From contig MQRK01183317.1 of assembly GCA_001938485.1 (NCBI GenBank), positions 1 to 56,497 on the forward strand: a DNA stretch of 56,497 nucleotides, given 5' to 3'. Origin of the DNA: Girardia tigrina. Lineage: Eukaryota. Within the stretch, counting starts at the first letter, position 1. Each line of letters starts with the position of its first letter. This document shows positions 32,376-40,615 of the stretch, piece by piece. The notes under the pieces are model-generated. The model had not been told where the DNA came from. It saw only the letters and a program-made list of their open reading frames with translations, and searched no databases. A program made the translations under genes and the position numbers.

Positions 32376-32715
32376 ATGAAGGAAAAATTAAACATATTAA
32401 ACATTTACGAATCAAAATTTCAAAACCGATTATTCCCAAAGAATTTCCGAATACTGAGTATCGGTGAATCCGGTTGTGGTAAAAATGTTCTGCTATCCAA
32501 AATGTTACTGGTAGACGAATTTCTCGATTTTAATAATCTGATCTTCTATTCCACAACAATTGATCAACCGGAATTGAAAGTCATTTTCAAGGGATTCCGA
32601 TTTGTAGACGGCTCTTCTCTAACCAAAGCCGGTATCCGAGATATATTCGATAAACAGAATAAGCTTTTGGATATGATAAAACAGGAATTTGGAAATGAGA
32701 ATGTTGATGATTATA
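32376..32715 (+). pseudogene. A32/FtsK-like genome packaging ATPase, N-terminal part
   Basis: LFPKNFRILSIGESGCGKN (Walker A with T>N), then YSTTIDQPE; cut by the DD37E transposon. Confidence 0.8.
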
Positions 32716-33690
32716 TAAGGTGTGTCCACTAAAGAAGTGCACAAGTTTTAAAACCATCATAACTTTTTAATTAGACCTTCAAATTAACGGATATCTGAAC
32801 AAAGACTAGATCATAATAACACAATAACTATTTTATTATATCAAACTATTAAGGCCATAAGAGTTAGAAAGCATTTTTCTTTGTCTAAAATTTGCAAATA
32901 ATGTCCTAAAATATAAATTGTTAAACTGCTTTGCTTTAGTTTTGATTCTGCGAATCAACTGGTCTTCAGAATCGACAGTCCAACCCTTTTCATACACCCT
33001 GTCCTTTAAATGAGCCCAAAACTTTTCAATTGGGCGTATTTGGGGAGCACAAGGTGGATTCGAATCTTTTTTGACAAATGGAATTTTGTTGTCCTCTAAG
33101 CACTTCAGACTTGCTTTGGCGTAGTGACAAGAAGCAACATCTGACCAGAAGATGAAGTGACCAGCTGGGTATTTCTCATTCAGATAAGGAATCAAACGCT
33201 TCGTTAAGCACTCGGAGATATAAATATCCGAATTAGAAGCTACAGATTTCCATTTCCTGATGTACAGGTTTGAAATGCCTCGTCTGGAAACAGTTGCCCA
33301 AACCAAAACTTTAACTTTGAATTTCTCTCGAAATTTAAGGCGAATATTATCAGGTACATCACCGAACTTCTTTTGGTCCACATAATAACCCGATGTCATT
33401 GCTCCGGTGAGTGTAAAATACAACTCAAGTACAAAGTCGGTTTTGATCTTTTCCACAACAATTTTAGCGAGATTTTGCAACCTGGCTTTCTGGAGAATAA
33501 TCTGTCGGAGTAACCTTTGGGACTTTTTTCCTCTTTCGAAACACTATGTTATTAGTCTTGAGTATCTTATGCACGTAAGACTTTGAAATATTCATTTCTC
33601 TACCTAACTTTCTAACACTTTGTCCAACAGTCAAAGTTGCACGCTGCAGAAGTCTCTTCATTTTGTCTGACGTCATTTTAACAGGTTTAT
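32716..33690 (-). mobile_element. ITmD37E/TRT-type (DD37E) transposon, 5'-truncated, inserted in the Maverick
   Basis: FWSDVASCHY...NPPCAPQIRPIEKFW with 37 residues between D and E; HTH part 33464-33690 frameshifted; TIR-like TA-AGGTGTGTCCAC at the left end. Confidence 0.85.
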
Positions 33691-33699
33691 AATGATAAT

Positions 33700-34113
33700 A
33701 GTTCATTTCTGCATTCCATGCATGAATTCGTTACCAAAGGCACCGGAGGCGAAATTGAGGCCAATGACACCATTGACTTTGACAAATCCAAAAACAAATT
33801 GTTGGACCGATAACCGACTAATAGTATAAATATACATTCCAGATTACTGATATAAACATTTGCAATATTGGCGGGATATGTTTCAATGGATAAGCAAATA
33901 AAAAATACCAATATTATTTACTCGTTTCCGGCATTCACAGTGCCAATCGGATACAAGATCAATGAGCGACCGTCCTTTGTGACCTATTATCCAGTGTATC
34001 TGTATGAAATCAATGAATTCACAGTACGAGTAATCGATAATAAGGGTCGCCTGATCAACTTTAACAATGAGCATGTGAATATGTGTTTGCGACTGAGACA
34101 GAGTGTCTTGTAA
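33700..34113 (+). pseudogene. Minor capsid protein (penton) C-terminal fragment
   Basis: TNIIYSFPAFTVPIGYKINERPSFVTYYPV...FTVRVIDNKGRLINFNNEHVNMCLRL resembles the Polinton penton C-terminus; upstream part frameshifted. Confidence 0.7.
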
Positions 34114-37009: not shown

Positions 37010-37373
37010 CTAATTAAATGGCAGCCCTAAAGGGTATCCTCCTTCAGATATTTTAAATGATTAATGAATGGTATTTGATAAAATGGTGTTTGGTAATTAA
37101 TGATTAATATGTTGATACACTTTTAATTTTTATTTTTTAATTTTTAAATTTTTTTTAATTAAGACGATTAATGAAAAAATAATAAACCACCTTTTTATTC
37201 TAATCAATTTTAAACAATCTAACATTTCTGAATTTTTATTATGACTATTAATTTGTTAGTCTATTAAACAATCGAACCTTAATTTAATTTAATAATCAAA
37301 CGGCCATTCTTCGGAATGGCTTTTAAGTATCCTGATTTTCGAATTCGGTAATGCTATAATATAAATAAAGAAA

Positions 37374-40300
37374 ATGTACCTGAAAAAATTTAAAACGATG
37401 TTTAAGCAAAAAGTGGAAAATTAACATATTTGGGATGAAGAGAATCTCTATTTAGATGTTTTATTCGGCAACACAAATAATGATTCCAATGGTATTCCGC
37501 CAAATACTGATGAAACTGTTAACTGTAGTGAAGAGGAAAACATAAAAATAGAAGAGAATAAAAACGAAATGCCAACGAAAATAGATGATTTTAGTGAATC
37601 GGAATGTTCTTCATTAGATGATGAAATCAATTTAGTAGAATATTTAAAATCGGAATCGGAAACAAAAACAGAATCGGATAGTGATGATGATCCTCTTTAT
37701 TGTCAATATTGCCATAACCGATTTAAGAACAGAAAAGGAATTCCAATGCATAATCGAAGCAAAGCTCATATAAGAAATGTTAATAAGAGTTTTTACATTG
37801 CCGAAATTAGTAGTGGCGATGAAGATAGGAATAATATTGAAGTGATTTCGAATGATGAATGCGGCTATTTGATTAAGTATTATTCAGATATTCGCTTGTC
37901 GATTTTATTTGAAGATATTCAACAATTGATTGAAAGATTGAAAGCCCAAAAAAGGAAAATGCCCTATAAATTGCAATTAGAAGCTTCAGTGGTTTATGAA
38001 CGGAAAACGATTACAGATCAAAGCACAGAAACATATCAAGAGTACAAACCGATAATATTGAATACGCTAGCTACAATGATAAGAAATAAAAAGGATTTGA
38101 AAAATTTTGATTTGGACTCGTTTTTGGAAATAAATACCAAAAATACCGATAGACAGAATGGACCATCGGATTAATCGCTTAAGCGAATTGAATATTTGAT
38201 CTTGAAAAGAATGAACTATCGAAACGCCTTATCTGCTAAATTGCTAATTCAAGGCAGTTATTAATTTCCAGAATGATAATTTTTGTTTTAAATGGTGTTT
38301 TATTGCTTATGATAAAAGAGTGGAATTACACAATATTGCTCACCCTGACAGAGTGAATCATTATATAAAAATTTATAATGATAATAAACCTTATTATGAT
38401 AGTATATTTGGTGATATGAATTTTCCTGTTACTGAACAAGATATTGTAAAATTTAATAAAAGAGTCACTCCTGAAAATAAAGATAATTTATTTGTTTATG
38501 ATAAGAATGGGAAAATTGAATGTCATATACATTCCAATATGGATCCGAGGGGATTCAAATTAATTGAATATTCTAAAAAGGTTAGAGTGAAAATTGGAAA
38601 TGGATTTACAGAGAAGAAAGTAAGTCATTTGAGTTACTGCAAAAATATCGCTGCATTTTTAAACCATGATCGTCATCATTTAAAGCATTTATGTTTGAAC
38701 TGTTTATGTTTTTAAAATTCAGTAGAGGGTTTAAAAAAACATAAGAATCATTGTATTAAACATAAACCTATTCGTACTAAATTCCCTAAGGATAATAAAT
38801 TTAAATTTAATAAGTTTTATTTGAAAAACCGTGTTCCTTTTAAATTTTACGCTGATTTCGAATGTGATAATATGGAGATTGATGCGCGTAGAGAATACGA
38901 CTATGATGAAAGAACTGCAGAAGACTTTATTGAATTTTTTAAAGATAAACTTGAAGATACAGATAAAACGAAATATTTATTTAAACAAGAGGCGCGATCT
39001 GTAGAAATTTATTTTCACAGTCTATTACCCGAAATAATTGAGGATGAATTTAGTAAAATATTAAAAACAGAAATAAATTTAGTAATGTCTGATGAAGATA
39101 ATGTAAATTTCCAAAATGCCACTAATTGTTATTATTGCGATAAAGCTTTTAATCAGCCTGTTGAGAAATTCCGAGATCATGGCCATCTGACTGCTCGATT
39201 TAGAGGTGCAGCCCATAAGTCGTGTAATTTAAATGCGAAGAAAATTGACTTTGTTCCCTTTATATTATTCAATAACACCAAATACGATAACCATCTGTTT
39301 TTCAAGAAACTATTTAAACTGGCCAAAGAAAAGAATATTAAAACAAGTGTTCTGCCGAAAACATCTGAGGATTATTTATCTTTTCAAGTTGGTTGTATAA
39401 TGTTTCTGGATGCCAGAAAATTTGGAGATGGATCGCCATTAGCAGTATGCGCTGGTAATCTGAGAGAATCTGAATGTAAATTATGAGATAAAAATAATTT
39501 ACTTTTTTTAGATGAGTCAACTGGGAGAAAATTACCAAAGAAAGGAATTTTCCCTTATAATTTTCTTCGGGGTAAATTGTGTAAGGATATTGATAAGATT
39601 TTAGATAAAACCGAATTACCATCACATGCTGAATTTTATGATATTTTAAAAAAGAAAAATATTAGTGCGGAAGAATATCAGATAGCAATAAAAAATTGGA
39701 ATGATTTAGGATGTGCAAATCTTCGTGATTATCTACTGGCATATATGAAGACGTATATTCTGTTAATGGCTGATTTCTTTGAAAACTTGTGTAATAAATA
39801 TCTGTAATATTATCAAATAGATCCATCATATTGTTATTCGGCTCCTGGTTTGACATGGTTAGCTGGAATGAAGTATACCGGATAAGAGTTGGTGTATTTT
39901 AAAGAGGAAACTTATGATAAGTTAATGTTTTTTTGAGGAGGGAACAAGAGGAGGATTTTCAGGAGTATTAGGAGATCGGTTCGCATTTGCTTGTAATAAA
40001 AATGTCATTATCGGAGGAGACTTAAAGAAATATATTAAGGAATCTAGGGATTTTTTTCGAAAATTTGTAGATGATTATAAAGATTGTGAAGATAAAAATA
40101 ATTTTGATTATAGTAAATACAATAGTGATAGAATCGAATATAAGTTTCTGATTGAAGAGTTTAAAATATTAAAAGACAAAGAAAATTTTGACTATAAAAA
40201 ATTCTTTAGGGAAAATTATATATTGTATTTGGACGCAAACAGTTTATACTCTTCCACAATGACATTTTATTTACCAACTGGTGAAATGAAATGGTGTGAT

Positions 40301-40615
40301 CTATTAACATATACACGGTCACATGAAGAAATATGTTTGGTTATGTATATGAAGTTACGTTGGAGTATCCGATAGAATTACAAAAGATGCACATATATTA
40401 TCCTCTATGTCAGGAAAGAATAGTCCCCAATGTGCCTCGAAATCTTTTATCTAATTACGAAAAAAACTGTTTATCAGAATAAACCAGACAAAACAGAAAA
40501 ACTTACTTTGAATTTTAATGATAAAGAAAAATACATTATATAGGGTAGAATGCTAGACTTTTTTGTCGATCAAGGAATGGTAATTAAAGAGATTCATAGG
40601 AAATTTGTTTATATA
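37374..40615 (+). pseudogene. polB: Protein-primed DNA polymerase B (lineage 1), frameshifted and truncated
   Basis: N-terminal C2H2 finger; NFCFKWC; exonuclease FYADFE; endoVII-like CYYC...RDHGHLTARFRGAAHKSCNL; YSAPGLTW; motif A YLDANSLYSSTM at about 40226. Confidence 0.92.

Follow-up and report, generated by a model that had tools for sequence, protein, structure and literature searches.

The 56,497-nucleotide stretch of Girardia tigrina DNA analysed here (contig MQRK01183317.1; the window) very probably carries a dead Maverick/Polinton copy that has suffered deletions and belongs to a high-copy family, whose polymerase class is likely alpha (group 2). The protein-primed PolB, ATPase, penton and adenain genes left in the window, together with the major capsid protein (MCP), integrase, terminal inverted repeats (TIRs) and target-site duplications (TSDs) of sister copies elsewhere in the genome, bear out an earlier note that had read the locus as an endogenous Maverick/adintovirus. 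Its picture of a lone divergent virus gives way to one decayed member of a large family, with adenain alone yielding 150 scored matches among 1536 candidates, the window copy included. By itself, the window copy is unable to replicate, integrate or make a capsid.

Gene content of the window copy and its sisters

The window copy (Table 1) comprises the compact, co-oriented, intronless run of ATPase, penton, adenain, membrane-protein and PolB genes originally described, all on the plus strand and in the order first given. The reported AAAATG starts also hold, lying upstream of four of the five ORF starts checked (internal Met codons of penton and PolB excluded) and at all 12 ORF starts of the sisters, compared with 172 of the 2020 ATGs across the window. 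The start of the element, previously set at 32376, moves outward, as homology already begins at 32061: the non-coding remnant there is 83–92% identical to many genomic copies, nearly all beginning at this same position. Upstream of it, relatives have about 90 bp more in common that is missing from the window, and in loci L024 and L061 the counterpart of the remnant is inverted and sits immediately internal to the TIR. A TIR search of the window returned short chance-level matches only, and the segment 28216–31958, considered as a left arm, was rejected because family genes find no match there. MCP and integrase are indeed missing, as tblastn with both proteins gives no match in the window.

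Table 1. Features of the window copy and its Tc1-type inserts
Feature	Position	Strand	Evidence or remark
Non-coding left remnant with TCAAA repeats	32061..32375	+	Cut on left, TIR absent
A32/FtsK packaging ATPase, N-terminal third	32376..32717	+	Walker A GESGCGKN
Tc1/mariner transposon, 5'-truncated, one TIR	32715..33688	-	DDE_3 E 1.7e-4
Penton (single jelly-roll minor capsid protein), C-terminal half	33694..34113	+	tblastn to sister penton
Adenain-type maturation protease, open frame, 155 aa	34155..34622	+	PF00770 E 0.045
One broken gene	34681..36286	+	Sister ORFs align over three frames with stops
237-aa helical hairpin, hydrophobic tip at about residues 93–138	36296..37009	+	Predicted structure
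Protein-primed PolB, C2H2 finger and endonuclease VII-like insert	37376..40621	+	Start read by eye
Second Tc1-type transposon, 5' third only, one TIR	40619..41099	-	HTH_32 E 7e-5

The penton and ATPase assignments are upheld through the sister proteins. The ATPase piece aligns at 76% to residues 1–105 of a 291-aa sister ATPase that matches PF04665 at E 6.3e-9 (the window piece by itself, E 0.018), while the penton remnant, with 2 stops over 33694–34107, aligns at 48% to residues 118–256 of a 257-aa sister protein whose model matches the mavirus penton 6g41 at E 1.9e-8, followed by the Sputnik and adenovirus pentons. Adenain retains its His, Asp and Gln/Cys in the motifs GSHW, FDPFG and QPYGTRLCG, and its 149 other scored genomic matches show 64–79% identity. 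The accessory ORFs at 34681, 35352 and 36047 are fragments of a single gene, which in the sisters forms one variable ORF of 454–581 aa with a coiled-coil-like N-terminal half; it matches no Pfam family over the cut-off, and a role as spike or fibre is a guess.

The PolB aligns from 37680 to 40621 at about 47% to residues 118–1124 of a 1405-aa sister PolB. It is split over three frames with 9 in-frame stops and has lost its last ~280 residues, and it retains the YLDANSLY motif and the endonuclease VII-like insert (PF02945, E 5e-4). In a quick-method tree of 59 rows, with 54 of the 106 usable database rows left out and reference alpha, beta or bidnavirus PolBs included in neither tree nor alignment, it clusters with 7 other PolBs of its own genome at 99% SH-aLRT. 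Comparison of the PolB with phages gave no match. The PolB fragments at 42312–43429 and 49154–50066, tried as the displaced PolB end, were rejected at 29–38% to the family PolB; the former is part of another repeat family.

Copies with MCP, integrase, TIRs and 6-bp TSDs are present in the genome as the sister copies. These span 15.7–17.4 kb, with TIRs ending AG...CT and 6-bp TSDs; TIR pairs were found in four of the nine pairs compared, three of the four with a perfect TSD (CCCATT, TCCGGG and GCTGGG). Their genes run in one direction, from ATPase through PLA2-integrase, MCP, two probable core genes, penton and adenain to the 450–580 aa gene, the two-helix gene and PolB. Of 10 neighbourhoods fetched, 7 show an MCP start or ORF, and the other three are N at that point. 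The sister MCP matches PF21738 (double jelly-roll capsid, E 2.4e-15) and the integrase PF00665 (rve, E 2.2e-9), the latter fused in frame to a PLA2 domain (PF08398, E 1.6e-9); a pX-like motif presumably sits in the 240-aa core gene. Six genes are under purifying selection, with median dN/dS of 0.07–0.18 from 3 to 28 usable pairs per gene.

Deletions at the truncated Tc1 elements

The first Tc1 keeps about 973 of 1325 bp and is 95–96% identical to 39 other scored copies of ~1.33 kb, and the second keeps about 481 of 1416 bp, at 94–97% to 39 other scored copies, and stands where the PolB end and right TIR would be. Their description as half-elements is correct in that each is truncated and has one TIR, but the first retains three quarters of its length. 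The deletions proposed at these points are supported, and the sister copies hold the missing genes. The ~6 kb deletion is located at the broken end of the first Tc1, and the PolB end is gone at the second, as are both TIRs of the element. As to the order of events, two Tc1 elements would have inserted and deletions would then have passed through each, the first removing the rest of the ATPase, the integrase, capsid and core genes and half the penton, and the second the PolB end and right TIR.

The read check of junctions covers the first break (33688/33689), which a contig from run X2 spans (33630–33945, 2 differences), 59 of its bases falling within the transposon; run X3, which is from another organism, placed just 20 reads. 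The X2 contig, and the deletions that other copies carry at different points of their own, make it very unlikely that the missing modules reflect assembly collapse at repeats, with no real deletions, even though the assembly has 255,254 contigs and both breaks fall within high-copy transposons. Scarcely credible is a domestication of the window copy for its two open genes: the adenain and two-helix frames do remain open despite the 9 stops of PolB, but both genes are short, scored copies generally have open frames, and low dN/dS against relatives reflects the viral past.

Relation to known elements and polymerase class

The sister copies share with Polintons/Mavericks (Polintoviricetes; adintoviruses, Eupolintoviridae; PMC8502044, PMC4028283) a length of 15–20 kb, TIRs, a 6-bp TSD, pPolB, rve integrase, A32 ATPase, adenain, double jelly-roll MCP and penton, but differ in the in-frame fusion of PLA2 to integrase and in core genes that all point one way; the window copy differs further in being deleted and dead. 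With alpha adintoviruses (group 2; Mayetiola, Spodoptera; PMC8502044, PMC5803895), the family has a weak endonuclease VII signature and PLA2 in common, whereas in alpha elements PLA2X stands as a gene of its own and has a pX-like tail, the family's own PolBs lack PF03175, and named relatives reach only 30–33% in PolB. The environmental IMG/VR contigs L124, L129 and L117 carry the same PolB, penton and MCP class, with PLA2 adjoining or upstream of integrase, and L124 and L129 also have the two-helix gene (E 2e-15 and 7e-13). They differ from the family in gene order and have a PolB identity of ~30%, and in L117 and L124 the PLA2 and integrase frames overlap, in contrast to the in-frame fusion. 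A single-sequence MCP scan of viral contigs gave no match.

No near-identical described Maverick was found, the best database integrase being 42% identical. The nearest database PolB is only 44% identical, and the lineage therefore looks undescribed at the gene level as judged from sequence, yet its gene set is common to environmental viral contigs. The PLA2-integrase fusion was not found in the literature searched outside subscription papers, including the accessible parts of PMC3671162 and PMC5803895. Maverick expansion in planarians is already in print: the DNA/Maverick expansion of Dugesia (10.64898/2025.12.11.693146) is large and in a flatworm genome, like the family here, and in the available part of that report is a repeat-class count without gene map or virion genes. 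Gene-level planarian Polintons were not found in the literature searched outside subscription papers, Repbase and bioRxiv supplements. Repbase has Schmidtea Polinton entries.

The predicted structure of the protein encoded at 36296 (pLDDT 81.8) places helices at residues 44–116 and 125–177. In BFVD, the model matches iridovirus proteins (E 7e-5 and 9e-5) and SLATT-annotated giant-virus proteins (E 0.045–0.2), and the predicted fold resembles a SLATT-type two-helix hairpin. Its 85 relatives (gene dN/dS 0.12) come from profile search alone, a word-index search having given 976 candidates and none at E 0.001. Cluster entries for 19 relatives show 'hypothetical protein' as the sole name, and in the ESM Atlas this protein and a second query both matched unnamed viral clusters. 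Pfam over 69 family members reveals no family in common, and a PDB profile search gives SmhB (E 0.064) as a lead only. The proposed GasderminX-like identity gains no support: no gasdermin appears among the matches listed, in Foldseek PDB (none at E 0.001) or in VIA wide, where the best match, a BAR domain at Z 10.7, is within the range expected of helical bundles.

The 'beta (group II)' label of the earlier note conflicts with published usage, in which beta PolB falls into group 1 and alpha PolB into group 2 (Starrett 2021, PMC8502044) and vertebrate Mavericks are treated as group I (Barreat 2021, PMC8097293). An endonuclease VII match is also present in Spodoptera Mavericks (PMC5803895 Table 3), which Starrett Fig. 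S2 (PMC8502044) places under alpha, and GasderminX is reported together with alpha PolB as well; because both occur with alpha PolB, neither marker is diagnostic. The PLA2 domain is an alpha hallmark, and two alpha maps also show SLATT genes (PMC8502044). Further traits of the alpha class are a pfam03175-type PolB that matches bidnaviruses strongly, and of the beta class a Terrapene-like PolB, cupiennin and GasderminX, which resembles a gasdermin C-domain and has a pX-like tail; both classes share an OTU domain at the PolB N terminus. A further study splits PolBs by identity, at over 35% to Mayetiola PolB and near 10% to Terrapene PolB (10.64898/2026.07.28.741253).

On sequence comparison, the family likely belongs to the alpha class. 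Specifically, the sisters carry PLA2 (PF08398), and the nearest database PolBs share the PF03175 and endonuclease VII profile of the Spodoptera elements: the two nearest match PF03175 at E 4e-16 and 1e-17 with weak endonuclease VII, and relatives at 39–43% identity have PF03175 above the cut-off. Moreover, 4 of 30 viral contigs of this PolB class (L123, L126, L137 and L138) carry PLA2 apart from integrase, in the order ATPase-PLA2-adenain-penton, as on alpha maps. Against alpha, neither of the two full sister PolBs scanned matches PF03175 at E up to 1, which alone fits the 'divergent' wording for beta PolB (Starrett, PMC8502044). One named PolB relative comes from Pinctada, which appears among the beta hosts. 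The reading as a beta-class adintovirus with GasderminX as its marker is quite improbable: it draws on the missing PF03175 match and on a presumed likeness of the 36296 protein to a family of membrane proteins often present in animal Polintons. It is countered by the endonuclease VII match of alpha elements, the PLA2 of the sisters, the group numbering, the SLATT genes on alpha maps and the modelled long hairpin, whose nearest matches are iridovirus and SLATT-annotated proteins.

Proposed biology and significance

By analogy with the known family, an active ancestor of the window copy would have copied itself by protein-primed synthesis from its TIRs, inserted via the rve integrase, and packaged its DNA in a capsid of the double jelly-roll type that adenain matured. 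The PLA2-integrase fusion may travel in the particle, where its PLA2 domain, together with the hydrophobic hairpin, would putatively aid membrane crossing and the protease could free the integrase at Gly-Gly of the linker, in keeping with the Gly-Gly cleavage rule of this protease.

Somewhat unlikely is that the family spreads purely as an intragenomic transposon, its virion genes serving an intracellular step or being recent relics. Such spread is suggested by the very high copy number, by window-like copies that are mostly broken, and by one PolB-truncated copy whose TIRs are 99% identical and whose TSD is perfect, and which therefore likely moved in trans; against it stand capsid, penton, ATPase and protease with dN/dS below 0.2 at dS 0.5–0.9, and the same gene set on environmental viral contigs L124 and L129. 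Tentative, and doubtful when all its parts are taken together, is the reading of an undescribed genus-level flatworm DNA virus lineage that makes particles, with more than a thousand genomic copies, polymerases swapped between sublineages under one capsid module, and cell entry by the PLA2-integrase fusion together with a SLATT-like hairpin that iridoviruses also have.

As a dead member of a likely alpha-class Maverick family, the window copy by itself is ordinary fossil DNA. Neither the endonuclease VII insert nor a 'GasderminX-like' look serves well as a clade marker. The family ties a complete set of virion genes, under purifying selection, to a Maverick expansion in a flatworm, flatworm Mavericks having been reported as a repeat class only in the accessible parts of the sources. 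The PLA2-integrase fusion and the two-helix protein are tractable subjects for studying entry of such viruses and, if the particle-making lineage is real, the planarian Maverick expansion would be a record of infection.

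Decay of the window copy

The co-oriented, intronless run proposed in the earlier note is present in pieces, which belong to an A32 ATPase, penton, adenain, one long gene, a membrane protein with two helices, and pPolB. Two minus-strand Tc1-type transposons break it up. The accessory ORFs named in that note are three pieces of one gene. Taken by themselves, the window pieces give weak Pfam matches (ATPase E 0.018, adenain E 0.045, endonuclease VII E 5e-4), so the gene calls rest on sister copies elsewhere in the genome.

The window copy falls into a sub-group of older and more broken copies, and its own nearest relatives are ~83-90% identical at the DNA level. 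The deletions suspected at the transposons are borne out: since the ATPase stops after ~114 codons at the first Tc1 element (96% to its own 1.33 kb family, 5′ quarter gone) and the penton restarts at ~residue 118 directly behind the broken Tc1 end, ~6 kb of sister-copy sequence has been lost there. A contig from run X2 spans this first break. In the assembly, window PolB ends near residue 1124 at the second Tc1 fragment. Both inserts lie ~4% from their own families, less than the distance of the Maverick copy to its nearest relatives, which would fit Tc1 insertion after Maverick arrival. The TCAAA segment also abuts the ATPase in at least five copies (L046, L047, L049, L051, L053), and its orientation in window-type copies is opposite to that in sister copies L024 and L061; the window copy and these five apparently constitute a rearranged sublineage.

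Coordinates of the Maverick copy and of other sequence in the window
Feature	Position	Strand	Observation
TCAAA segment	32061-32375		family homology begins at 32061; no TIR there
Maverick gene run	32376-40621	+
Membrane protein	36296-37009		237 aa
PolB-derived repeat	41707-43400		separate, very high-copy; of 3093 candidates, 39 other scored copies match at ~85%
27-bp tandem repeat	41874-41968		inside the PolB-derived repeat
PolB C-terminal fragment	49154-50066		31-38% to family PolB
Repeat or duplication (either)	28216-31958		stretches of C254560 and C163836 match at 94-96% identity; no Maverick gene, no Pfam match
Cys-rich exon-like frame	26917-27345	-	by eye laminin G/EGF-like; no Pfam match at E 0.001
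Cyclophilin fragment	5747-6166	-	PF00160 E 2e-6
LTR retrotransposon remnants	2264, 11505, 16158, 53901

Sister copies and their virion genes

In the same genome, all 150 scored adenain candidates (of 1536) match at 64-79% identity, self excluded, and for the membrane protein, scoring 150 of the 1640 candidates gave 152 matches. Ten sister neighbourhoods, picked for long contigs, share one gene order: small accessory genes and ATPase (291 aa); a 452-aa protein with PLA2 (PF08398 E 1.6e-9) and rve (E 2.2e-9) domains; MCP (PF21738 E 2.4e-15) followed by 240-aa and 380-aa genes; and penton, adenain, a 450-580 aa gene, membrane protein and PolB of ~1405 aa. Terminal inverted repeats of 92-99% identity occur in 4 of 9 compared pairs of stretches, and perfect 6-bp target duplications flank AG...CT ends in three of the four TIR-bounded copies (15.7, 17.1 and 17.4 kb). 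Sister copies of the kind that the earlier note proposed to look for, with MCP, integrase, TIRs and TSD, are present in the genome. Median pairwise dN/dS between natural open frames is 0.07 for ATPase (10 pairs), 0.08 for PLA2-integrase (3), 0.12 for the membrane protein (23 of 28 usable), 0.13 for adenain (13 of 21 usable), 0.17 for MCP (6) and 0.18 for penton (28). Translation table 9 suits a cox1 copy in this genome better than table 5 does: ATA falls on Ile and AAA on Asn at positions where these residues are conserved, in keeping with a flatworm or an echinoderm.

One 15.7 kb sister (G000:C215858:7480-23181; L058, L015, L016) has 99% TIRs, a perfect TSD, long open virion genes and a reversed PolB without the C-terminal polymerase part; it is likely a non-autonomous form mobilised in trans. 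Several PolB sublineages in this genome (L016, L017, L023, L026, L029, L099, L112) share only ~40-57% identity, against 73-99% for the capsid, integrase and two-helix genes of those copies, which suggests polymerase swapping under one virion module.

The penton call is upheld by the sister protein's model (pLDDT 61.9, 11 sequences), which best matches the mavirus penton (E 1.9e-8), followed by Sputnik and adenovirus pentons; in VIA, the sister penton gives Z 6.9 to 8.8 for jelly-roll vertex/capsid-associated chains, values similar to those of unrelated jelly rolls. The membrane protein has 85 relatives by profile search, and its model (69 sequences, pLDDT 81.8) is a long hairpin of helices whose tip is hydrophobic. 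Among viral proteins it matches two from iridoviruses best (E 7e-5 and 9e-5), and SLATT-annotated giant-virus proteins follow lower down (E 0.045 to 0.2). It is read as SLATT-like; the GasderminX of Starrett 2021 may belong to the same family.

Class assignment and relatives

The earlier note's beta (group II) label does not agree with Starrett 2021 (PMC8502044), where beta PolB is binned with group 1 and alpha with group 2, PLA2X is described as typical of alpha modules, and GasderminX, proposed as a beta marker, accompanies both PolB types; vertebrate Mavericks are placed with group I in Barreat 2021 (PMC8097293). The endonuclease VII insert likewise fails to mark beta, as Spodoptera Mavericks, with weak endonuclease VII and moderate PolB2 matches (Geisler 2018, PMC5803895), are listed as alpha in Fig. 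S2 of PMC8502044. The nearest database PolBs show this same profile; among the matches listed, 82 of 120 PolB relatives carry the endonuclease motif, and named relatives are mostly insects (30-33% identity). An HNH insert is known in nematode and oomycete pPolB2 (10.1101/2023.08.22.554363). Of 30 viral contigs that carry PolB of this class, 4 have a PLA2 gene that is separate from integrase and placed in the alpha order. Two sister PolBs lack any PF03175 match, which counts against alpha, but alpha/group 2 is judged the probable placement of the window family.

The closest PolB (44%) and integrase (42%) are both unnamed metagenome proteins. In a quick-method tree of one PolB segment, built on 59 rows that include 52 of the 106 usable database relatives, a branch with 99% SH-aLRT separates the eight own-genome rows from the others. 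PLA2 and integrase Pfam domains co-occur in most of 120 integrase relatives, among the matches listed, and their fusion is common among metagenome integrase relatives. The PLA2 and integrase frames overlap close to an A-run in environmental viral contigs L117 (8000-8070) and L124 (3010-3080), through either a programmed frameshift or a sequencing error.

Standing of the family

Replication, integration and packaging are established Polinton biology (PMC11161782, PMC4028283) and would proceed likewise in the window family; PLA2 and the membrane-protein hairpin may act in entry. A DNA/Maverick expansion is reported in a Dugesia genome (10.64898/2025.12.11.693146). The Maverick locus in the window is a genomic fossil, and the kind of element it represents is known. 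The suggestion of an undescribed lineage stands in part: judged by its genes, the family looks undescribed (PolB ≤44%), yet it has close architectural relatives in viral contigs L124 and L129, which have the whole gene set in common with it but differ in gene order.
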